Below, piece by piece: positions 4,451 to 27,883 of a stretch of DNA of 27,966 nt. The notes beneath the pieces were generated by a model that searched no databases, was not told where the DNA came from, and worked only from the letters and a program-made list of their open reading frames with translations. Position 1 is the stretch's first letter, and the number at the start of each line of letters is the position of its first letter. The DNA comes from a virus (Duplodnaviria > Caudoviricetes), in the IMG/VR virus record IMGVR_UViG_3300049137_000036, positions 1-27,966 of that record. The stretch is one strand, 5' to 3'. Position numbers and translations under genes: made by a program.

Positions 4451-6412
4451 GTGGCGTTCGTCGTCTCCCAGGGGCAGCTGTCGGCGGTGTCGGTGTCTCC
4501 GTCGCTGGTGTCACCGGCCTACATCCAGCTCGCCGACAATGTGTTCCACGAGTACGGGCATCTGTACCGCAAGCAGGCGCAGATCCGCACGGTGGTCAGC
4601 TTCCTGGCGAGGAACATCGCCCAGCTAGGGCTGCACACCTACCGGCGGGTGTCGGATACGGACCGGGAGCGGCTGACGGATCATCCGCTGCCGCGGATTC
4701 TGGCGGCGCCGGGCGCGAGGCTGTCCCGGTACCGGCTGATTGAGCGCCTGGTGTCGGACATCGGGATCTACGACAAGGCGTTCTGGGTCAAGGTCCGCAT
4801 GGAGTCGGGCGAGCTGCTGGGTGTGATCCCGGTGCCGCCGTCGCGGATGGAGATCCGCGGCGACAACTGGCTGGAGCCTGAGCAGTTCGTGGTCCATGGC
4901 TCGAAGGGTGACCTGAAGCTCGACCCGGATCAGGTGGTGTACTTCCACGGCTACGATCCGGACGATCTGCGCGAGGGGTCGTCGCCGATCGAGGCCCTGC
5001 GGAGCATGCTGCAGGAGGAGTACGAGGCGACGCGGTCGCGGGAGCAGATGTGGCGCAATGGCGGCCGGCTTTCCGGTGTGCTGAAGCGGCCGTCGGACGC
5101 ACCGCCGTGGGCGCCTGAGGCGCGGGCCAGGTTCGGTGAGTCGTGGCGCTCGTACACGTCAGGCGGCGGGTCTGCCGGTGGCACGCCGATCCTCGAGGAC
5201 GGCATGGAGTACGAGCAGATCGCCCTCGATCCGGCGAAGGCCCAGTACATCGAGGCCCGCAAGCTCACCAGGGAAGAGGTCGCGGCGGCGTACCACATTC
5301 CGCTGCCGATGGTCGGGATCCTCGACAACGCGACGTTCTCCAACATCAAGGAGCAGCACCAGCATCTCTACCAGGACACGCTCGGCCCGTGGCTGCAGAT
5401 GATCCAGGAGGAGATCGCTCTTCAGCTGATCCCCGACCTGCCGGACTCGGGCGACGTGTATGTCGAGTTCAACCTGCAGGAGAAGCTCCGCGGGTCGTTC
5501 GAGGAGCAGGCCGCGCAACTGCAGACCGCGGTCGGTGCTCCGTGGCTGCTGAGGAACGAAGCCCGGGCGCGGATGAACCTTCCGGCGATCGACGGCGGGA
5601 ACGAACTGATCACTCCGATGAACGTGCTGGTCGGAGGTATGGCGTCGCCCACGGACACGGCACCGAGTCCGGCGCAGGCTTCGCTCCCAAAAGAGCGGGG
5701 CCGCCTGGTGCTGATGAAGGCGGCGCCGGAGCGGCCTGACGGCTTGGGTGACTTCGACGAGGAGCAGGAGCGGTTCGCCGCGGCGCTCGAGCGGTGGACG
5801 AAGCGCCAGTTCGGCCGTCTGGTGGATCGTGCTGGTGCGAAGGCGGACGGCGTCCCGGATCTGCTGTCGTGGTGGAGCGAAGGCTCTGAGGAGCGGCTTG
5901 TCGAACTGACGTCGCTGCTTGCCGAGCATGGCTACCGCATCGCGCAGCTGGGGGCGTGGGGTGTCCTGGCCGACTTCAATCCGGAGGCGGCCGGCTGGGA
6001 TCCGGAAGTGATGCTGCCGTGGCTGCTGGCCGCAGCGGAGTCACACGCCGACCAGCACGAGTCGGCCGGCCACGACGCTGTCGCCGCTGTGGACGACAGC
6101 GGAGACGGCTGGCAGGAGAACCTCAGGCACGCGGGCGAGCTGTGGGTGACAGCGGCAGCGGTACGCGCCCTGACGGCGTCCACGGAGGCCCGCAGCTTCG
6201 GCTCGCATGACGCGGCCGGCGCCTCCGGGGTGACGAAGAAGATCTGGCGGACCGGCGGGAACAGCCCGCGGCCGTCTCACCGAGCGCAGGATGGCGAATC
6301 CGTCTCGATGGATGACGTGTTCAGCAACGGCCTCCGGTGGCCCGGGGACGGCAAGGGCGAGGCCAAGGAAACCGCGAACTGCAAGTGCCGTCTCGACTAC
6401 GCAACGGAGTGA
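4451..6412 (+). CDS. HK97-family portal protein fused to a MuF/minor-head-like C-terminal domain
   Basis: GGAGG RBS then GTG at 4451. Portal motifs GSSPIEAL, ILEDGMEY, EEVAAAYHIP, NEARARMNLP. C-terminal KIWRTGG..RPSHRAQDG..LRWPGD..ANCKCRL is MuF-like. Confidence 0.9.
   Translation: MAFVVSQGQLSAVSVSPSLVSPAYIQLADNVFHEYGHLYRKQAQIRTVVSFLARNIAQLGLHTYRRVSDTDRERLTDHPLPRILAAPGARLSRYRLIERLVSDIGIYDKAFWVKVRMESGELLGVIPVPPSRMEIRGDNWLEPEQFVVHGSKGDLKLDPDQVVYFHGYDPDDLREGSSPIEALRSMLQEEYEATRSREQMWRNGGRLSGVLKRPSDAPPWAPEARARFGESWRSYTSGGGSAGGTPILEDGMEYEQIALDPAKAQYIEARKLTREEVAAAYHIPLPMVGILDNATFSNIKEQHQHLYQDTLGPWLQMIQEEIALQLIPDLPDSGDVYVEFNLQEKLRGSFEEQAAQLQTAVGAPWLLRNEARARMNLPAIDGGNELITPMNVLVGGMASPTDTAPSPAQASLPKERGRLVLMKAAPERPDGLGDFDEEQERFAAALERWTKRQFGRLVDRAGAKADGVPDLLSWWSEGSEERLVELTSLLAEHGYRIAQLGAWGVLADFNPEAAGWDPEVMLPWLLAAAESHADQHESAGHDAVAAVDDSGDGWQENLRHAGELWVTAAAVRALTASTEARSFGSHDAAGASGVTKKIWRTGGNSPRPSHRAQDGESVSMDDVFSNGLRWPGDGKGEAKETANCKCRLDYATE
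5686..5724 (+). other. Candidate -1 ribosomal frameshift signal in the portal gene
   Basis: In-frame C_CCA_AAA heptamer (5686-5692), 7 nt spacer, stem GCCGCCT/AGGCGGC (5700-5706/5718-5724). Confidence 0.55.
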
Positions 6413-6414
6413 CG

Positions 6415-7254
6415 ATGCGAATCAAGAGCTGCCCCGTGCGCATCAAGGCGGCGGGCGAGAACGAGGGGACCGAGGAAGGTGTGTTCGAGGCGATCGTCGC
6501 CGCGTACAACCTGGACTCGGTCGGGGACAAGATCACGCCGGGGGCTTTCGCGGAAACCCTCGCCACATGGAAGGCGACGGGCGATCCGATTCCGGTCCTG
6601 TGGTCGCACATGTCGCACGACCCGGAGTACCACATCGGGGAGGTGCTGGAGGCGGAGGAACGCCCGGAGGGCCTGTGGGTGAAGGCCCGCATCGACCTCG
6701 ACGAGGGCTCCAAGGCTGCCCGCGTGTACAAGCTGCTGAAGGGTCGGCGGGTCACCCAGTTCTCCTTCGCCTACGACGTCGAGGAGGGCGCGTGGGTCGA
6801 CGAGAAGGACGGCGAGGGCTACTACGAGCTGCGCAAGCTCAAGCTCTACGAGGTCGGCCCCACGTTGATCGGCGCGAACCAGGCGACGGAACTGCTGGAC
6901 GTGAAGTCCGCCGACGGCGCTACCATGCGCATCGCGGTCGAAGGCGCTTCCGCCGCGCAGACTGAAGAACTTCGCCACGCCCTCTCGGGGGCCATGGCGG
7001 CGAAGGCTGGGCGGACACTCAGCCAGAAGAACGAGGAGCGCGTCAAGGAGATCGCGCGACTCGCCAAGGAGCTGCTGGACTCCCTGTCTTCCAGCGCTGA
7101 TGACGATGAGAAGGCCACGCCGACTCCGCCCGAGCAATCCTCGCCGCAGCTCCCTGCGGCGAAGGAGGCTCCGGCCGGTCCGAGCCCCGCCTCGCTCCGT
7201 CAGCTCGCCGACCTGCAGGCCCTCGAGGCCGAGGTCTCCACGCTCACGGGATGA
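6415..7254 (+). CDS. HK97-family prohead protease
   Basis: DSVGDKITPGAF, PVLWSH, GLWVKA, FSFAY and LYEVGPTLIGAN motifs; GGAG RBS. Confidence 0.92.
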   Translation: MRIKSCPVRIKAAGENEGTEEGVFEAIVAAYNLDSVGDKITPGAFAETLATWKATGDPIPVLWSHMSHDPEYHIGEVLEAEERPEGLWVKARIDLDEGSKAARVYKLLKGRRVTQFSFAYDVEEGAWVDEKDGEGYYELRKLKLYEVGPTLIGANQATELLDVKSADGATMRIAVEGASAAQTEELRHALSGAMAAKAGRTLSQKNEERVKEIARLAKELLDSLSSSADDDEKATPTPPEQSSPQLPAAKEAPAGPSPASLRQLADLQALEAEVSTLTG

Positions 7255-7262
7255 GGAACCCC

Positions 7263-8600
7263 ATGCCTATCAAGACTGACGAGCTCCTCGACGAGCTCAC
7301 CCACCACCTGAAGGAAGCCCGGGAGATCGCGGCGAAGGCCGAGACCGAGGACCGAGACTTCACCGACGAGGAGCGCACGCGCCTCAACGAGCACATGGCC
7401 AAGGCCAAGGAGGCCAAGGCGGGCCTGGAGAAGGCCAAGGCGACCGCCACGATGCGGCAGGCCCTCGCGGACCTCGGCGACGGCGTCGAGCTGAACGAGA
7501 AGTCCGGCGAACGCCGGACCGCGTCCGGGCTGATCGTGCCGCCCGACGCGGGCAGCCTCGGCGAGTCCTTCGTCAAGAGCGGGGCCTACGCCGGGCTGAT
7601 GGCGCAGGCGCCGCGCGGCGGCTTCGGCGCGAAGTCCCGCGTCCAGTCCATGCCGGCCAGCTACAAGAGCCTGGTCACCGGCGCTTCGGACACGTCTGCC
7701 GGCGGGTTCGTCACCAACGACATGCGGGGTCTGCAGGTCGGGCTCAACCTGTTCGAGCGCCCGCTGCGGCTGCGCGATGTGGTGGCCAACGGCACGACCG
7801 GCTCCGACACCATCGAGTACGTGCGCGTCACCTCGACCACGAACAACGCGGCCCCGGTGGCGGAGGCCACGACCGCGGCAGCCCCGACCTCGGGCGGCAC
7901 GGCCGGCCCGCTGGTCCAGGCGGCCGGCGGCGGCTACAAGCCGGAGTCGGGTCTGGCTGTGGCGAAGGTCACCACGCCCGTGCGCACGATCGCGCACTGG
8001 ATCCCGATCACGAAGCGCGCCCTGTCCGACGCCGCGCAGATCCGCACCCTGATCGACTCCTTCCTGCGCTACGGCCTGGAGGAAGAGCTCGAGGACCAGA
8101 TGATCTCCGGTGACGGCACCGGGGAGAACTTCGAGGGCCTGGCCAACGTGTCCGGAACCCAGGCGCAGGCCTGGGACACCACCGGCACGGGCGCGGACAT
8201 GCAGCGTCTGCGCACCCTGCGCAAGGCCAAGACCAAGGTCTACACCGTGGGCCGCAGCGTGCCGAACGCCTACCTGCTGAACCCGGCCGACGTCGAGGCG
8301 ATCGACCTGTCCGTGAACGGCAACGCCGACTTCTACTTCGGCGGCCCGGGCTCGGCCGGCACCGCGACGGCGCTGTGGGGCCTCCCGGTCATCCAGACCG
8401 AGGCGGTCTCCGCGGGCACCGGCTACGTCGGCGACTTCCGCAAGGCGATGCTGTGGGACCGCGAGCAGGCGTCCATCACCGTCACCGACAGCCACGCGGA
8501 CTTCTTCGTGCGGAACCTGGTGGCGATCCTCGCTGAGATGCGTGCAGCGTTCGGTGTCATCCAGCCGTCGGCGTTCGTCGAGATCGACCTGACCGCGTGA
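7263..8600 (+). CDS. Major capsid protein, HK97 fold with N-terminal coiled-coil delta domain
   Basis: Charged helical N-terminus; YK|SLVTGASDTSAGG resembles the HK97 K103/S104 cleavage context; also ITKRALSDA, GDGTG, LWGLPVI, FVRNLVAILAEMR. GAGGA RBS favours 7263 over 7251. Confidence 0.95.
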   Translation: MPIKTDELLDELTHHLKEAREIAAKAETEDRDFTDEERTRLNEHMAKAKEAKAGLEKAKATATMRQALADLGDGVELNEKSGERRTASGLIVPPDAGSLGESFVKSGAYAGLMAQAPRGGFGAKSRVQSMPASYKSLVTGASDTSAGGFVTNDMRGLQVGLNLFERPLRLRDVVANGTTGSDTIEYVRVTSTTNNAAPVAEATTAAAPTSGGTAGPLVQAAGGGYKPESGLAVAKVTTPVRTIAHWIPITKRALSDAAQIRTLIDSFLRYGLEEELEDQMISGDGTGENFEGLANVSGTQAQAWDTTGTGADMQRLRTLRKAKTKVYTVGRSVPNAYLLNPADVEAIDLSVNGNADFYFGGPGSAGTATALWGLPVIQTEAVSAGTGYVGDFRKAMLWDREQASITVTDSHADFFVRNLVAILAEMRAAFGVIQPSAFVEIDLTA

Positions 8601-17599: not shown

Positions 17600-18759
17600 T
17601 GCTCCCGATGCCAGCCGCTGCGCTCGCGGCGCTGACGGGGGCTTGCCGTCGGCCTTACCGGGCGGAGTGGTCGAACGACGGCGGCGTCACGTGGACGGCG
17701 TGCGGCCTGCTGGCCGGCTCGGCGCAGGTGCAGGCGTCACGCACCAGCGACACCCGCTACTCCGGGTCGGCGACGCTGACAGGCGTGCCCCTGGGGCGGG
17801 ACGGCATCAACCCGATCTCGACGAACGTGCGTCTGTGGCAGGGCATCACACCGCCCCGCCTCGACACGGTGTGGGTGCCTGCCGGCCGGTACACGGTGAA
17901 CCGGCCGCGGGAGACGAAGACCGGTATCAGTGTCGAGCTCGACGGGCTCGAGGACGAGATTCAGGCAGCGGCTTTCCCGGTGCCGCGGACGGTCGGCCCG
18001 GATTCGGCGCGCGCCCTTGTAGCGGTCCTCGTCGGCGAGGCGCTGCCGGGGGTGCCGATCGCATGGCGGGCTGGGGTGAACCCGGATACGACGGTGCCGC
18101 AGATCGTCGCCTCGGAGGACCGGTGGGCAGTCTTGGCGGGCGGCGCGGACAGTGCTGGATCGGAGACGGGTATCGCGGCGGCGTTGGCTGGTGAACTGTG
18201 GGTGGATGCCCGGGGGGTGGTGACGGTCGGGCCGGTGCCGACCCTGTCGGATCCGGTGGTGTGGCGTATCGGCCGCGGCGAGGGCGGGGCGCTGATCCTG
18301 CCGCAGCCCGAGCAGTCCGCCGAAGGGCTCGCGAACGTATGGGTCGTCTCCGGTGATGCCGGCGACGGGGCGCCCGCGGTCGGCCCGGTGTACGCCTGGG
18401 ACGACGACCCGAACTCGCTGACTTACGCGGGCCCGGACCCTGTCAACGATCCGCTGGCGCCGCAGCGCGAGGGCCTGGTGTGGGTGCGGGTGCGCACGGA
18501 GCGCTACTCGTCCGGGCTGATCACCACCGTGCACCAGGCGGAGGAGGTCGCGGCCGCCAAGCTGGCCGACAGCCTGGGCGTGCAGAACACCCTGTCGCTG
18601 ACCGCCGCCTGCAACCCGGCGCTGGAGCCGGGCGATGTGGTCGAGGTCGAGACGGCGGCGGGCGTGTGGGAGCGGCATCTCATTGACTCCCTGTCGTACA
18701 CGCTTGGCGCCCCGTCGATGTCCTGCTCGACTCGCACGACGACGAGGAGGGTCACATGA
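17599..18759 (+). CDS. Minor tail/baseplate hub protein (DUF5047-like)
   Basis: GTG overlaps the upstream TAG; WVPAGRY, LWVDARG, NPALEPGDVVEV motifs. Confidence 0.72.
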   Translation: MLPMPAAALAALTGACRRPYRAEWSNDGGVTWTACGLLAGSAQVQASRTSDTRYSGSATLTGVPLGRDGINPISTNVRLWQGITPPRLDTVWVPAGRYTVNRPRETKTGISVELDGLEDEIQAAAFPVPRTVGPDSARALVAVLVGEALPGVPIAWRAGVNPDTTVPQIVASEDRWAVLAGGADSAGSETGIAAALAGELWVDARGVVTVGPVPTLSDPVVWRIGRGEGGALILPQPEQSAEGLANVWVVSGDAGDGAPAVGPVYAWDDDPNSLTYAGPDPVNDPLAPQREGLVWVRVRTERYSSGLITTVHQAEEVAAAKLADSLGVQNTLSLTAACNPALEPGDVVEVETAAGVWERHLIDSLSYTLGAPSMSCSTRTTTRRVT

Positions 18760-19682
18760 CCTCGGCAGCTGACCAGCTGGGCAAGCAGCTACACCAGGCT
18801 GGCCGCCAGGACACGGCATCGGTCACCGCCCAGGTCGTCGATGTCACCGAGACCGGCGTCAACTTGGACTATCAGGGGGCGCTGCTGATTGATGTGGCCT
18901 GCCCGGACTCGTACCGGAACCGGCAGGCCGGGGACTGGGTGGCCGTGCGGCCGGGCACGGTGCCGGTGGTGCTGTGGCGCCTCGGCGCCGACCCGGGCGA
19001 CACCTCCGACGAGCACATTCAGGAGATTGCCGAGAACGCCGCGGCCGACATGCAGGTGGTGCGGGCGTTCACCTGGGGTACCGCCGCACCGGCCGGAACC
19101 GGATGGCAGACCGGCACCACCGTCCACGCCCGGAAGAACGCGCAGGGCAAGGTCGAGGTGTACGTGCAGCTGGCGAGCGTCACCGATCCGTCGCCTACCG
19201 CCCCGGGCGAGCGGGCCCCGTCCCCGGTCACGGTCAGCCCGACGGACTCGGGCACGTGGCGCAACAGCCGCCCGGACGACTATTCGTCGGCTCCTACCCA
19301 GGGCGACTGGACCGGCAGAGGCAACCGCCGCGGCGGCTGGTTCTACGGCTCCGCCATCCAGAACGCATGCGCCGGTAAGACCGTCGCTTCGATGACGGCC
19401 ACGTTCACGCGCAAGACCGGGGCCGGCGTGAACGCCAAACGGCCCATGCACCTGTACCTGCATGCGCACTCGAGCGCCCCGTCCGGGCAGCTCACCTTGG
19501 GCGACGGGCCCATCGACAACCTGCGGCTCTCGGCCGGCGCCCGCGGTTCGATCACCCTGCCGGACTCGTGGCAGTCGCAGCTCGCGTCCGGCGCCGCGAA
19601 AGGCCTCGCGATCTACGCGAACGGCTCCACCGACTACGCCTCCTTCACTGGCGGCTCCATCCGCATCACCTTCACCACCTGA
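18756..19682 (+). CDS. Minor tail protein
   Basis: GGAGG RBS with ATGA coupling; OB-like N-terminus then a beta-rich domain (QGDW..RGGWFYG). Confidence 0.68.
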   Translation: MTSAADQLGKQLHQAGRQDTASVTAQVVDVTETGVNLDYQGALLIDVACPDSYRNRQAGDWVAVRPGTVPVVLWRLGADPGDTSDEHIQEIAENAAADMQVVRAFTWGTAAPAGTGWQTGTTVHARKNAQGKVEVYVQLASVTDPSPTAPGERAPSPVTVSPTDSGTWRNSRPDDYSSAPTQGDWTGRGNRRGGWFYGSAIQNACAGKTVASMTATFTRKTGAGVNAKRPMHLYLHAHSSAPSGQLTLGDGPIDNLRLSAGARGSITLPDSWQSQLASGAAKGLAIYANGSTDYASFTGGSIRITFTT

Positions 19683-19695
19683 TAGGGGGCCCATC

Positions 19696-20313
19696 TTGGC
19701 GACCATCGGATACGCCGAACTTCCCGTCCCGGGCGGAGGGGACGCGCCTGTCGGGCCCGGCAACCTGGCCGACCTTGCGACGGCGATCGACCCGCACCTG
19801 TGGCAGCACGCCGACGACCAGGCCGACCGGGACAGCCTGTACTCCAGCGCCCCGGTGCAGACCGTCGTCGTCGCCCTCGACGGCACCGTATGGGTCAAGG
19901 TGTCGACAGCGAACACCTGGATCACCGTGTGGGAGCCGGAGCCCGCGTGGCGCACCCTGTCGCTGAACGCCAGCTTCGAGGCGGGGGCGATAATCCCGGA
20001 GATCCGCCGTAAGGGCAATCAAGTCTTCCTGCGGGGCCGGGCCGAACGGGTCGACGGGCAGGTCATCGTCGGCACCAACGGCATCGAGATCGCGACCGTA
20101 CCCGACGACTGCAAGCCCGCCCAGCAGGCCACGTCACCCGCCTTCTACTCCCTGACCGGCAGCCCGGTGATCGGCGCCGGACGGAACGAGATCTACAGCA
20201 ACAGCGACCCCAACCCGGCCAAGCTGTACTTCTTCTCCCAGGACGGCGCCCAAGACGGCGGCACCGTCGGCTGCGTGTGGGTGGACCTGTCCGGCTCCTA
20301 CTGGATCGACTGA
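19696..20313 (+). CDS. Minor tail/fibre-associated protein
   Basis: AGGGGG RBS with TTG start; LPVPGGGDAP..LATAID; IRRKGNQVFLRG..IATVPDDCKP C-terminal tail-fibre-like motif. Confidence 0.65.
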   Translation: MATIGYAELPVPGGGDAPVGPGNLADLATAIDPHLWQHADDQADRDSLYSSAPVQTVVVALDGTVWVKVSTANTWITVWEPEPAWRTLSLNASFEAGAIIPEIRRKGNQVFLRGRAERVDGQVIVGTNGIEIATVPDDCKPAQQATSPAFYSLTGSPVIGAGRNEIYSNSDPNPAKLYFFSQDGAQDGGTVGCVWVDLSGSYWID

Positions 20314-20322
20314 GGGGACGGC

Positions 20323-22332
20323 GTGGCTCTCTACACCTTCGGCGGCAACCCTGCCGCAGTCCTCACCACCGCCACAGGCGACGTGGTGCCCGACTATCCG
20401 GTGCAGGTCAAGGTCGCCGGCACTGGCGCCACGGTGACCGCCCTCTTCGAGGAGGACGGCACCACCCCGATCTCCGAACTCCGCTCCAACGGCGCCGCGT
20501 CGTCGCAGCCGGGCGCGATCCGCACGTTCAAGGCGCAGGACGTGCAGCAGATCTACTACGAATACCTCGACGCCAGCAGCCAGCCGGTCCGCTGGTACGA
20601 GACCGGGCGCGAGGTCGCCATCTCCGCCCTGCAGGCAGCGCAGACCGCGCAGACCGACCTGGCTGGGAAGTTGGACAAGACCGGCGGCACGGTGGCCGGG
20701 GCGCTCACCGTCACCGGTTTCACCACGCACCAGGCGGGCGCCTCGTTCGCTGGCGACGTGGCCTTCGCCGGGGCGGTCACCGGTGTGCCGAGCGTGGAGG
20801 AGATGCGCTGGCACAACGTGCTCAGTTACGGCGCCACCGGTGACGGGACGACGGACGACACGGCTGGCATCCAAGCCGCCCTCGATGCCGCGTACACCGC
20901 AGGCGGCGGCACGGTCGTCTTCCCGGCGGGCAAGACGTACTGCGTGACGACATTCCTGGTGTGCAGGTCGAACACCACGGTCATCGCCCACGGGGCCCGC
21001 ATCAAGTCGATCTACGCAACGCGGGGCGTGTTCAGGAACTTCTTCCCCGAGGACTCGGTCAGCGCCTACGCCGGATACTCCAACATCCGCGTCTACGGCG
21101 GCACGTGGGATGGCAACGCGTTCAAGTCCAGCGACAGCAGCGGCGTGGTCACGGGCACGACGAACATCATGACGTTCATTCACTGCTCGAACATCATCGT
21201 CAAGGACGCCGTCTTCCTGGACTGCTCAGGCGCTCACGCTCTCGAGCTCAACGCAGTTTCCGGCGCGCGGATCGAGGCCTGCCGCTTCGAAGGATTCGTC
21301 GACAACACCGTCGACCAGTCGCGGCTCACATCCGAGGCGATCCAGATCGACATCGCCAAGTCGGGCAGCAGTGCGATCGGCGCGTTCGACAACACCGCCT
21401 GCCGAGACGTATCCGTCGTCGCCTGCTACTTCGGCCCATCCGCCCGTCTCGGGCAGTGGGGCCGCGCGGTAGGCACGCACGCCATCGCCGCCGGGTCGTA
21501 CTACGACCGGATCACCGTCCGCGACTGTGAGGTCGTCGGCGCGAACGATGTCGGGATCAGGGCCTCCTACTGGCGGAACAGCCTCATCACCGGCAACAAG
21601 ATCGTGAACACCGGCGAGTCGGGCATCTACGCCACCACCGACGGCACCGCCGCGCAGGCCTGCAACGGACTCGTCATTTCCGACAACATCGTCGACAACG
21701 CGCAGAACGATGCCGGCATCCGAATCGTCGGACTCGTGAACGCCGTGTGGAACGACGTGGTCATTCGCGGCAACGTCGTTCGCCTCGCCGACGGGTACGG
21801 CATCCGCGCCGACTACTGCCCCAGCGTCATCATCGCCGCCAACCGCATCTCCGACCCGGTCGGCGGCGGCATGCTCGCCCAGGAGTGCAACCGAGCCACG
21901 GTCACCGGCAACGTCATCAGCTCGGCCGGCTCGAACGGCATCAACATCGCCGGCTGCGCGTATGGCATCGTCGAAGGCAACCTGATCGACGGCACGGACG
22001 CCAACCACGGGATCACCGTCGGCGCGGCAACATCCGCTGGCGGGAACGTCGTCGTCGAGGGCAACCAGATCCGTGCCGCGGCGAACGCAGCCCTGCGCAT
22101 CGCGACCACCGGCTGTTTCCTCACCAGCAACCAAGTCCGCAAGGACGCTGCGGGCGGCGGCGTGACCGTGAACGGCGTCAGCCTCGCAGCGGGGGCGACG
22201 GGCTGTGTCATCGCGGGCAACGACCTGTCGGGCAACGCGTGGGCGGCCGGAACGGCGCTGTCGCTGTCGACAGCAGCCCCCAAGACGGACTTCGCGGGCG
22301 GTACCACCAGCCCCGGCCACAACCTCATCTAG
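20323..22332 (+). CDS. Tailspike/receptor-binding protein with pectate-lyase-like right-handed beta helix
   Basis: NVLSYGATGDGTTDDTAGIQAALDAA..GGTVVFPAG cap motif and many I/V-x-G-N-x-I repeats. Confidence 0.85.
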   Translation: MALYTFGGNPAAVLTTATGDVVPDYPVQVKVAGTGATVTALFEEDGTTPISELRSNGAASSQPGAIRTFKAQDVQQIYYEYLDASSQPVRWYETGREVAISALQAAQTAQTDLAGKLDKTGGTVAGALTVTGFTTHQAGASFAGDVAFAGAVTGVPSVEEMRWHNVLSYGATGDGTTDDTAGIQAALDAAYTAGGGTVVFPAGKTYCVTTFLVCRSNTTVIAHGARIKSIYATRGVFRNFFPEDSVSAYAGYSNIRVYGGTWDGNAFKSSDSSGVVTGTTNIMTFIHCSNIIVKDAVFLDCSGAHALELNAVSGARIEACRFEGFVDNTVDQSRLTSEAIQIDIAKSGSSAIGAFDNTACRDVSVVACYFGPSARLGQWGRAVGTHAIAAGSYYDRITVRDCEVVGANDVGIRASYWRNSLITGNKIVNTGESGIYATTDGTAAQACNGLVISDNIVDNAQNDAGIRIVGLVNAVWNDVVIRGNVVRLADGYGIRADYCPSVIIAANRISDPVGGGMLAQECNRATVTGNVISSAGSNGINIAGCAYGIVEGNLIDGTDANHGITVGAATSAGGNVVVEGNQIRAAANAALRIATTGCFLTSNQVRKDAAGGGVTVNGVSLAAGATGCVIAGNDLSGNAWAAGTALSLSTAAPKTDFAGGTTSPGHNLI

Positions 22333-24927: not shown

Positions 24928-25287
24928 ATGACAGAGGTAGAGATGATGCAGCAGGTCGTGGCAATCCTCACCCAGACGCGGGAGATATCCGACAACCTAG
25001 AGGACATCGACGAGGACTCCGATGTCAGCGAGGCGAGCTTGCGGGCGGGCGAACTCATCGCCGAGGTGCTGCGTGTCGATGGCATCACCATCTCGGACCC
25101 CCACCCGCAGGCCGTGTCCGATGCAGTGATGGCCGCCCTTCAGCCGCGAGTGGGCCTGTTGGCTGCCAGCTTCATCGCCGCTTTTACACGGCTGGCCATG
25201 GTCCACGACAACGGGGAGGCCACCTCCTCAGCCGACGTGCTCCGTGATTTGGCGTTGGAGTGGGCGATGACCGAGGAGGACGAGTGA
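24928..25287 (+). CDS. Acidic helical hypothetical protein, probably leaderless
   Basis: TAGGCT (24916-24921), 6 nt, ATG; no SD. Confidence 0.65.
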   Translation: MTEVEMMQQVVAILTQTREISDNLEDIDEDSDVSEASLRAGELIAEVLRVDGITISDPHPQAVSDAVMAALQPRVGLLAASFIAAFTRLAMVHDNGEATSSADVLRDLALEWAMTEEDE

Positions 25288-25700: not shown

Positions 25701-25816
25701 TGTCCGCAAACGAACGTCTGTCGTCAGCCGCCGCGTCTACTCCGTTTCTGCAGCACAGATATGACGAAAACTCATGTCCTTAACTACGTCGCGCAAACCC
25801 CCCATTGCGCTACGCT
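25701..25816. promoter_or_regulatory. Putative res site and resolvase promoter
   Basis: Degenerate TGWC..AAAC half-sites (25701-25711, 25762-25771, 25775-25784); inverted repeat GCGCAA/TTGCGC (25791-25810); -10 TACGCT (25811-25816). Confidence 0.45.
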
Positions 25817-25822
25817 AAAGCC

Positions 25823-26395
25823 ATGAGAATCGGATACGGGCGGGTCTCCACCCGAGACCAGAACCCCGAAGCGCAGGAGGACGCACTCACGGCCGCCGAC
25901 TGCGATCGCATCTTCGTCGACAAGCTCAGCGGCAAGCTTGCTTCACGGCCCGAGCTGGACAAGGCGCTGTTGTCGGCCCGCGACGGCGACCAGTTCGTGA
26001 TCACCAAGCTGGACCGGCTCGGAAGGTCGCTGAAGAACCTCATCGAGTTGTCCGAGCAACTGCAACAGCAGGGCGTCAGCCTCGTCGTCTTGGACCAGGG
26101 CATCGACACCTCGACACCCGTGGGCCGCATGTTCTTCCACATCCTCGGAGCCATTGCGGAGTTCGAGCACAGCCTGATGGTCGAGAGGACGAAGGAGGGG
26201 CTGGAAGCAGCGAGGGCCCGGGGCCGCCAGGGTGGGCGCAAGCCTGTGCTCCGGAAGCGACAGGTCGAGCTTGCGCAGCAGATGTACGACGAGCTGGGAG
26301 ACGACGGCAAGCGCAAGCACACCGTGCAGGACATCGCCGACGAACTCGGCGTCGCCCGCACCACCATCTACAGGTACCTGGAAAGAGAGAAGTGA
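25823..26395 (+). CDS. Small serine recombinase (resolvase/invertase family)
   Basis: IGYGRVST catalytic Ser, [21 protein letters not shown]-terminal [19 protein letters not shown]; leaderless start. Confidence 0.95.
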
Positions 26396-26396
26396 C

Positions 26397-27290
26397 ATGG
26401 GACGTGAAGTACGCCGAGTACCCCTCGACTTCGACTGGCCGCTCAACAAGGTCTGGGAAGGGTTCCTGAGCCCCGACAAGTTCGACGAGGAGCCGTGCCC
26501 AGACTGCAAGAACGGATACTCGCCGCGCGCCGAGAATCTTTATGACCTCTGGTACGGCAGGCTGCCGTTCGATCCGGCCAGCACCGGCTCGACGCCCTGG
26601 CGGCACGATAGCCCGGCGGTGCGCGCCTTCGCCGAGCGGAACCTCAGTAACGCTCCGGACTACTACGGCGGGGGCGAGATGGCGCTCATGCGTGAGGCGC
26701 AGCGACTCGCCGACCTGTTCAACGAGGGATGGTCGCAGCACCTCGCCCAGGAAGACGTGGACGCCCTTGTCGCTGCGGGTCGACTGCGCGACTTCACCCA
26801 CACCTGGAGCCGCCAAGAGGGCTGGCAGAAGATCGAACCAGCCGTCACGCCCACCGCCGAGCAGGTCAACGAGTGGTCCCTGCGCGGCTTCGGGCACGAC
26901 TGCATCAACGCCAGCGTCGCAATCCGCGCTCGCTGTGAACGTGAGGGCATCGACGACACGTGCCCCACATGCAAGGGGCACGCCAGCCTGGAGAAGTACG
27001 AGGGACAGCGCGCCGAGGCTGAAGCCTGGGAGCCAACCGACCCGCCGAAGGGCGACGGCTGGCAGCTCTGGGAGACCGTGTCTGAGGGGTCCCCGGTCAG
27101 CCCTGTCTTCGCGACGGCCGACGGGCTGGCCGGGTGGATGTCCGACCCGGCGCGCGGCGACCGCTGGGTGCCGGGGGACGTGGCCCGCAAGTTCATCGAC
27201 GACGGCTGGGCTCCGACCGGGGTTGTGACGCCTGGGCGCGGCTACTCGTCAGGCGTCGAAGCCGTCGGCTGGGGTAACAAGGAGGATTGA
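26397..27290 (+). CDS. Phage hypothetical protein with split CxxCxG zinc-finger motifs
   Basis: ATG 1 nt after the resolvase stop; CPDCKNG and CPTCKGH; [18 protein letters not shown] motif. Confidence 0.75.
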
Positions 27291-27302
27291 CCGCAAGCAG
27301 CA

Positions 27303-27337
27303 CGGCGCCCCGCCCAGGGAAAGTGGGCGGGGCGCCG
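27303..27337 (+). terminator. 14-bp hairpin terminator
   Basis: CGGCGCCCCGCCCA pairs perfectly with TGGGCGGGGCGCCG. Confidence 0.7.
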
Positions 27338-27369
27338 CTGCGTCAGCATAAGGGTGCGGACATGCGAAC

Positions 27370-27397
27370 GCCCCCACAGCCGACCGGCTGTGGGGGC
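27370..27397 (-). terminator. 12-bp hairpin terminator downstream of the 8-aa ORF
   Basis: GCCCCCACAGCC pairs perfectly with GGCTGTGGGGGC; followed by GTTCGC on the minus strand. Confidence 0.65.
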
Positions 27398-27416
27398 ATT
27401 CTGCTGTCCACGGGGC

Positions 27417-27443
27417 CTAGCCCCAGCCGCTGTCGTCGCTCAT
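27417..27443 (-). CDS. Candidate 8-aa micropeptide MSDDSGWG
   Basis: GGGGAGGGAAC-ATG AGC GAC GAC AGC GGC TGG GGC TAG; all codons end in G/C; in-frame TGA upstream; own promoter and terminator. Confidence 0.5.
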   Translation of the reverse strand: MSDDSGWG

Positions 27444-27533
27444 GTTCCCTCCCCATGTTCAGGTGCGGCCCGCCGAGCGCCCAGAAGGGCCCCGCCCCGA
27501 AGGTCGGTTGCGAACTTGACGGGCCGCGCAGCT

Positions 27534-27563
27534 ACGGTAAGCCGTCCTTCGCTCCGTTGTCAG
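27534..27563 (-). promoter_or_regulatory. Sigma70/HrdB-like promoter for the micropeptide unit
   Basis: Minus strand: CTGACA (27563-27558), 18 nt, TACCGT (27539-27534). Confidence 0.45.
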
Positions 27564-27598: not shown

Positions 27599-27823
27599 TC
27601 ACGCCGCGTCCCACTGGTGAGCGCGGCCGCCGCGCCATTCAATCCAGGTCGGGTCGTCGATGATCCGCTCTGGGTCGAGGATGCCCGCAGCCTCGAGGAA
27701 CACGACCAGGTCGTGGTCGCTGTGGGCGAGGCCGAGGATTTCGTCGCGGCCCTGCCGTCGCACGGTGACGCGCCGGCCGCCGGTGGAGGACAGCCGGTGG
27801 ACGACGATTGGCGCGCTATCCAT
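27599..27823 (-). CDS. Hypothetical protein (74 aa), probably leaderless
   Basis: MDSAPIVVHRLSSTGGRRVTV...ILGLAHSDHDLVVFLEAAG...WIEWRGG; CACGAT-6nt-ATG. Confidence 0.7.
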   Translation of the reverse strand: MDSAPIVVHRLSSTGGRRVTVRRQGRDEILGLAHSDHDLVVFLEAAGILDPERIIDDPTWIEWRGGRAHQWDAA

Positions 27824-27883
27824 GGATCCATCGTGCCCCTGGTCGCCGCTCACAGCAGCCCGGCCCCGTCTACGCTCGACCCG

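Follow-up and report, generated by a model that had tools for sequence, protein, structure and literature searches.

A conserved phage micro-ORF as a candidate intracellular mimic of a Streptomyces peptide signal

The phage proteins Aqs1, from DMS3, and Qtip, from VP882, are quorum-sensing jammers; they are folded, several dozen residues in length and are not copies of a signal. In the arbitrium system of Bacillus phages (AimP-AimR-AimX) the signal, AimP, is a secreted pro-peptide encoded beside its own TPR receptor. The cross-talking arbitrium signal of a lysogen brought about a tenfold rise in lysogeny by a superinfecting phage (bioRxiv 10.1101/2025.10.13.681967). Systems of the RRNPP type are recognized by an exported pro-peptide of 10–100 amino acids adjacent to a TPR receptor of 250–500 amino acids, and the signals of Actinomycetota are described in the same source as typically small molecules (PMC10075063). 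Streptomyces is unmentioned in passages of a further report (PMC13389391). Neither the peptide family described below nor its Streptomyces pro-peptide/regulator pairs appear in the literature searched, at the level of titles and abstract openings, and supplementary smORF or Ribo-seq tables could list the ORF.

The virus record that concerns us, IMGVR_UViG_3300049137_000036, consists entirely of the 27,966-nt stretch analysed here (the window), with an estimated completeness of 59% and a GC content of about 0.68. It encodes terminase, portal, capsid, tail, amidase lysin and serine resolvase genes and its named relatives are all Streptomyces. A small unit encoding a peptide of eight residues occupies the right end, on the minus strand and convergent with a gene of approximately 296 codons (26400–27290, plus strand) that lacks a family match; the serine resolvase/invertase is at 25805–26395 on the plus strand. 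One DNA contig spans 26400–27720 with zero differences to the window, and is not independent support because it is possibly the window's own source. A second accessory gene on the plus strand (24928–25287) also lies between the lysin and the unit, and neither it nor the gene at 26400–27290 has a Pfam or PHROG match. Upstream is a gene of 75 codons (27599–27826, minus strand; phrog_17005, function unknown). It was considered as a partner and rejected, since the micro-ORF occurs within 450 nt after only one of 16 relatives. The homologue of this gene in the Chymera record (17644–17883) is on the opposite strand to the annotated gp23, which is possibly mis-annotated.

All elements that an initial annotation had listed for the unit, namely two promoter hexamers, a Shine-Dalgarno sequence, an ORF and a hairpin, are present on the minus strand, as is the in-frame TGA six codons 5′ of the ATG. 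The predicted −35 hexamer, CTGACA (27558–27563), is separated by 18 nt from the predicted −10 hexamer, TACCGT (27534–27539), which is 90 nt from the ATG. Most homologues carry a similar −35 hexamer 17–18 nt before the −10, and a −10-like hexamer is found ahead of 40 of 45 cassettes. A strict scan of the unit for a sigma-70 promoter and a U-tract terminator found neither, the −35 hexamer being missed, so that the promoter and terminator labels are predictions resting on conservation among the homologues. A structured leader RNA of about 70 nt follows (27462–27533), with a long closing stem and inner hairpins. The Shine-Dalgarno sequence GGGGAGGGA (27446–27454) precedes the micro-ORF itself, MSDDSGWG-TAG (27417–27443), for which the predicted mature form is SDDSGWG once the methionine is removed. 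Hairpin 1, the predicted terminator (27366–27401), has 12 perfect pairs (27397–27370), or 16 when G-U pairs are included, and a folding z of −7.5; a like hairpin comes after most homologues. Beyond it are a second copy of CCGCACC (27353–27359; the first is at 27468–27462) and hairpin 2 (27300–27341; z −6.2), the likely terminator of the convergent gene.

The initial annotation had overlooked both this second strong hairpin and the fact that the leader is a conserved structure. Of the hairpins that it proposed as insulating the unit on both sides, the downstream one is strong and the upstream one weak (z −1.9, with 9 of 200 shuffles as good). The leader alone gives a z of −2.1 and the whole unit −4.5. 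Rfam covariance models gave two matches far under the gathering score, neither of them on the leader. The window contains one instance of a Shine-Dalgarno sequence followed by a short ORF that ends in DxxWG, a combination that also arises in one of 150 shuffles; the pattern was chosen after the ORF had been seen and the homologues are therefore the real test.

Two further features of the unit deserve mention. At 27411–27425 the W-G codons can pair with a run of C after the stop, which would leave a small loop around the stop codon; a similar C-run occurs in many homologues and in several pro-peptide genes, a hint of common origin. In many homologues, L001, L024 and L031 among them, a CAGT(G/C/T)TGGCACG box, absent from the window, is conserved just upstream of the −35 hexamer. 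Its opposite strand resembles the extended −10 of a divergent promoter; alternatively it may be an operator.

When viral contigs and GTDB genomes were scanned by pattern, 45 more cassettes came to light in phages and prophages of Streptomyces type; the 46, with the window, encode 19 different peptides if a GTG start is translated as M. The family peptide is M-S-(D)-D-T-x-W-G, where x is A, W, G, T, S, Y or D; the D-S of the window peptide is unique within the family. Homologues are of 6–15 residues, as against eight in the window, and a hydrophobic segment is absent. Residue 2 is serine or glycine; such N-termini are substrates of methionine aminopeptidase, which would remove the first methionine. 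Seven of the 46 are in-frame tandems, for example MSDDTTWGNSDTAWG, and DTTWG is joined to DTAWG in five tandems and in L464. In 44 of 46 cassettes GGAGG is separated by 4 nt from the start codon, though GGAG or GGAGG was itself part of the search patterns. Twelve of the 19 GTDB genome matches are Streptomyces; of the other seven only one (L222, Prevotella) has an in-frame short ORF, and it was dropped as in frame by chance, with the flanking elements absent. No whole cassette occurs among cultured phages and PLSDB plasmids, which yielded the upstream gene, in Chymera, and otherwise short matches resembling hairpins. A scan of 401 Streptomyces genomes restricted to TAA and TGA stops found the micro-ORF in none, which, with two TAG copies known in that set, marks the element as rare among species representatives.

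Is the ORF maintained as a coding sequence? The search patterns had fixed some codons and the count was accordingly limited to copies whose search left T-x-W-G-stop free. A scan with a pattern ending at the third codon found a −10-like hexamer upstream in 25 of 46 loci; a short DTxW peptide is encoded at 24 of these, and leader-only searches contributed four more copies, for a total of 28 ORFs. All but one end in WG, the exception (L054, MSDTAW) being excluded from the codon count. The remaining 27 all have the same residues at D, T, W and G and a stop in the same place, x varies freely, and all three stop codons are used. The row differences are 30 synonymous and none non-synonymous, one of the 30 falling at D, which the pattern partly fixed. 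All six distinct alleles are synonymous against 18% by chance (rough P 3e-5), a figure to be read with the caution that the copies share descent and the rows are not independent events. No broken-frame copy is among those found. The initial annotation had put forward conservation of the Shine-Dalgarno sequence, ATG, motif and stop with synonymous variation as a check on its proposal, and the ORF is indeed conserved with synonymous variation among the homologues. The micro-ORF family is real, rare and conserved in phages.

The cassette is usually flanked on one side by the lysis genes and on the other by a terminal accessory region containing GntR, DUF6233, LexA-like and unnamed small genes. 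A convergent tyrosine or serine recombinase is the usual downstream neighbour (31 of 45 loci), as in the window, and families of unnamed small genes recur nearby (C0 at 29, C1 at 27 and C3 at 23 of the 45 loci). No neighbour is common to every one of the 45. A TROVE-domain gene lies within 4 kb of the cassette at five of the 45 loci (L171, L020, L061, L229 and L231).

The unit had been presented as self-contained, but it is not indivisible. The 45 cassettes comprise 29 with a long leader, 11 with a short leader and five lacking the −10 hexamer, so that in 16 the ORF occurs without a long leader; in L198 and L215 it abuts a DUF6221 gene and the leader is absent. Leader-only searches recovered intact ORFs in L410, L443, L448, L464, L476/L500, L488 and the seed genome. 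Eight further loci from these searches (L407, L408, L413, L419, L495, L505, L523 and L528) have promoter and leader but no Shine-Dalgarno sequence, ORF or hairpin 1, and such loci make up about half of the distinct matches in searches independent of the ORF. The two whose surroundings were scanned are prophage-like. ORF-less copies are scattered in the tree, forcing at least three changes, and L495 is 98% identical to the ORF-bearing L443. In L407, L408 and L419 the end of the leader runs directly into the sequence after the window's second CCGCACC, a junction that fits a deletion between these short repeats. The initial annotation had named loss of the ATG or frame with conserved flanks as evidence against a peptide, and the eight loci go part of the way towards it; what they lack is the whole module, cleanly, and the frame is never broken.

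The closing stem of the leader is paired in 94% of cells and two pairs are changed on both sides, with a covariation score within the range of shuffles (109 of 500). Weak leader matches (L409, L414–L416) and 107 of 118 metagenome matches unconfirmed by the leader profile were left out. Comparison of the leader model with the pro-peptide loci and with stretches of Chymera and pSAM1 gave nothing convincing, the one match being weak (E 0.02). The leader may be a message stabiliser or a small RNA in its own right, and the ORF-less loci imply that the peptide can be dispensed with or that the RNA serves a function of its own. Promoter and structured RNA of about 70 nt without the micro-ORF constitute a candidate stand-alone phage small RNA that is absent from Rfam.

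Where else does the motif occur? D-[TS]-x-W-G is the repeat unit of pro-peptides with signal-peptide-like N-termini (assigned by eye) that are encoded back-to-back with LuxR-HTH regulators. A search for ORFs ending in D-[TS]-x-W-G-stop led to a pro-peptide with four DTSWG repeats in a prophage-like element of genome G005, back-to-back with a regulator of 333 residues. Scanning viral sequences for two DTxWG repeats gave 22 loci, of which four low-GC chance loci and three further loci were left out; eight are such pro-peptides, with the regulator beside all eight. One over-loose pattern, with matches at control level, was excluded. A single regulator query proved too insensitive and a profile was used instead; the regulator alignment identified 17 viral loci, mostly of 65–97 kb, in a clade made up mainly of phage-plasmids. 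All 17 have a pro-peptide with D-[TS]-x-W repeats encoded divergently from the regulator. Six have DTTWG only, five DTAWG only, two are mixed with DTGWG, and DTWWG, DSTWG, DTSWG and DTGWN occur once each, this match in motif class being partly built in because the regulators that seeded the alignment were themselves neighbours of DTxWG peptides. An identical pro-peptide counterpart exists for 50 of 53 micro-ORF units; DTYWG, DTDWG and DTAW are without one in our sample. These pairs are candidate signalling systems, as yet unproven.

The plasmid pSAM1 of S. ambofaciens carries ParAB, capsid, tail and lysin genes together with the regulator and a pro-peptide with three DTAWG repeats; it is expressed in one medium and almost absent from particles (PMC11302927), so that it may be defective. 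The regulator (SAM23877_RS36290) and pro-peptide lie at 19474–21077 (NZ_CP012383.1), and the plasmid also has a coupling protein alongside the genes for partition and phage structure. In the cultured temperate phage Chymera a regulator and a pro-peptide with two DPGWG repeats adjoin the integrase and repressor (6173–7448, NC_073457.1, gp29–gp30); both genes are annotated as hypothetical.

The regulator model (pLDDT 87) matches TrmBL2, TrmB and PLD folds, while Pfam recognizes only GerE. TPR regulators, once suggested as the target, can be set aside, as the model is of a TrmB/PLD-LuxR protein with no TPR fold. A search with Pfam TrmB (PF01978) led to no pro-peptide loci in two genomes. In the sample of 401 Streptomyces genomes 14 match the two-repeat pattern and 10 of these are pro-peptide/regulator pairs, eight being DTGWG in chromosomal settings (NRPS clusters, dnaK-clpB, signal peptidase). 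The chromosomal pairs at L559, L560 and L563 (genomes G397, G375 and G374), DTGWG or DSGWG, adjoin NRPS genes; those at L558 and L562 are between dnaK-dnaJ and clpB. The exact DSGWG of the window is found in one chromosomal pro-peptide, L548, within an NRPS cluster. The initial annotation had proposed a likeness to the ends of secreted peptides encoded beside LuxR-HTH regulators, and the D-[TS]-x-W-G repeats, with L548 as the exact case, bear this likeness out. Motifs of the window's own type, D-[TS]-G-W-G, turn up more often at chromosomal loci (eight of 401 genomes) than in the phage-plasmid clade (two of 17), and a well-supported branch of the regulator tree splits phage-plasmid from chromosomal regulators.

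A DxxW micro-ORF is absent from the examined stretches of pSAM1, Chymera and 26 other regulator loci, and from three whole phage-plasmid records. Conversely a 16-sequence profile found the full-length TrmB/PLD-LuxR regulator in none of 37 micro-ORF phage records (36 and the window), 18 of which are at least 90% complete. The positive control, the seed record, was detected, and in a local run the same profile scored phage-plasmid regulators at E 1e-80 or better. Seven micro-ORF records have matches to the LuxR-HTH only, mostly in small HTH proteins. The window, as a 59%-complete fragment, could encode its own regulator beyond its ends.

DTxWG pro-peptides are present in two of 13 micro-ORF genomes and in 10 of 399 others (p = 0.051), at most a suggestive association. 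In G047 a micro-ORF and a pro-peptide with its regulator, on separate contigs, share the motif DTGWG; in G005 the motifs are mismatched, DTWWG against DTSWG. At L103 and L130 the element's own pro-peptide, with two DTHW repeats, and regulator are followed some 30 nt downstream by a Shine-Dalgarno-led micro-ORF, MIDPGWG (L103 3013–3036, plus strand; L130 624–647, minus strand), with one synonymous difference between the loci. DPGWG is foreign to these systems and matches Chymera gp30. A foreign motif behind a DTHW system hints that the trick arose more than once, although two loci are thin evidence. The MIDPGWG ORFs may represent a second micro-ORF family.

We lean, by a little, towards an orphan micro-ORF whose peptide imitates the signal of another element inside the cell and probably steers phage-plasmids that compete with its carrier. 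This extends the phage mimic idea of the initial annotation, which gains from the absence of the regulator from micro-ORF records, as a mimic would predict, and from synonymous conservation of the ORF. The grounds are the coding-type variation, identity of the motif with pro-peptide repeats, and absence of both a signal sequence and the regulator; in addition DTTWG and DTAWG, the units joined in tandems, are the two commonest motifs of the phage-plasmid clade. The prophage would transcribe the unit from the predicted promoter, and the peptide, once translated and relieved of its first methionine, would fill the cytoplasm with a mature-like ligand of a rival's regulator. The rival's own pro-peptides would by our reasoning be secreted, processed and re-imported, with the PLD-like domain of the regulator as the presumed peptide-binding site. 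A co-infecting element, most likely a pSAM1-like phage-plasmid, would then read high infection density and stay dormant; the direction of this effect is taken by analogy with arbitrium cross-talk. Dormancy of an entering or resident phage-plasmid would protect the lysogen, and tandem ORFs could cover two codes, DTTWG and DTAWG. A possible objection is that an acidic peptide of seven residues may be quickly degraded in the cytoplasm. We consider it an even question whether Streptomyces prophages in general spoof signals in this way, by making a rival's mature peptide in the cytoplasm with no export or re-import and no receptor, and with two codes stacked.

Several other explanations should be weighed against the mimic of a phage-plasmid signal. 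Might the target be a chromosomal regulator of the same family, the prophage rewiring metabolism or stress genes of the host? The chromosomal DTGWG pairs and the exact DSGWG at L548 lend this some weight, and each of five hosts examined has several full-length regulators. The commonest micro-ORF units, however, are DTAWG (22 of 53), DTTWG (10 of 53) and DTWWG (8 of 53), which match the phage-plasmid clade and not the chromosomal group, and the chromosomal pairs in five micro-ORF hosts have different motifs (DVGW, NSSWP, DLVWG, NTSWP, DSTW and DAGWQ). We regard a host target as unlikely overall, yet a serious rival for the window's own DSGWG. It is also conceivable, and rather less probable, that the working part is the promoter-driven RNA of about 70 nt, acting as a small RNA or as a barrier to the convergent recombinase transcript, with the ORF a captured pro-peptide 3′ end. 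The eight scattered ORF-less loci, with the near-identity of L495 to L443, and the conserved closing stem fit such an RNA, but a bystander ORF sits poorly with in-frame tandems; the intact frames, synonymous variation and ORFs without a long leader argue that both modules are selected separately.

Alternatively, related phages could use the peptide as a genuine signal to one another, freed by lysis or by a route that needs no Sec signal, and read it with a receptor of their own that escapes our profile. There is precedent in RRNPP pro-peptides that exit without Sec (SHP, PrgQ via PptAB; PMC10075063), and the unnamed small genes that recur near the cassette might be relevant. Yet the peptides, of 7–15 residues, contain neither a hydrophobic nor a basic segment for export, no single neighbour accompanies every cassette, and the motif belongs to systems whose regulator the micro-ORF phages lack; we think a kin signal less probable again. 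An attenuator leader peptide or a RiPP precursor is suggested by the very short, Trp-containing ORF and its flanking hairpins, but is very improbable. The next gene is convergent in the window, as is the recombinase at most loci, leaving nothing to attenuate, and a RiPP-modifying enzyme is absent from the 28 scanned of the 30 commonest neighbour families.

If mimicry of a phage-plasmid signal is correct, the micro-ORFs provide independent genetic support for the DxxW repeats as active ligands of an undescribed peptide signalling system, and name the likely mature ligand, about SDTxWG, which is synthesisable. They would represent a counterfeit-signal defence against actinobacterial peptide signalling and a new mode of phage–phage conflict, conducted through genes of 6–15 codons that gene callers and functional screens miss. 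Since some chromosomal regulators of the family lie in NRPS clusters, such peptides could switch silent biosynthetic genes. Experimental handles exist in pSAM1 of S. ambofaciens ATCC 23877, with its three DTAWG repeats, and in Chymera, with two DPGWG repeats, on S. venezuelae.

How then does the locus compare with the known systems? Its D-[TS]-x-W-G units are identical to those of the DxxW pairs, and the D or S in front of them is often the same too; those pairs have a signal-peptide-like N-terminus, repeat spacers and a divergent regulator, whereas the micro-ORF lacks all three and has its own promoter and hairpin. With Aqs1 and Qtip it would share the principle of a small phage product acting on a regulator inside the cell. 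The likeness to RRNPP systems lies in a short peptide ligand, a cytoplasmic regulator and a common occurrence on mobile elements, but by the published definition of size, export and adjacency (PMC10075063) the micro-ORF falls outside the class, and the candidate receptor lacks the TPR fold. The likeness to arbitrium is that the short peptide of one phage can shift the decision of another, and that a prophage gains by driving a superinfecting phage into lysogeny (bioRxiv 10.1101/2025.10.13.681967). In contrast to AimP the peptide here is encoded at the length of a mature signal and lacks an export signal, and its receptor is missing from the phage that encodes it; a TrmB/PLD-LuxR protein is the candidate for that role, and the host is one of the Actinomycetota. 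By analogy, the micro-ORF may work like arbitrium cross-talk without membership in RRNPP.
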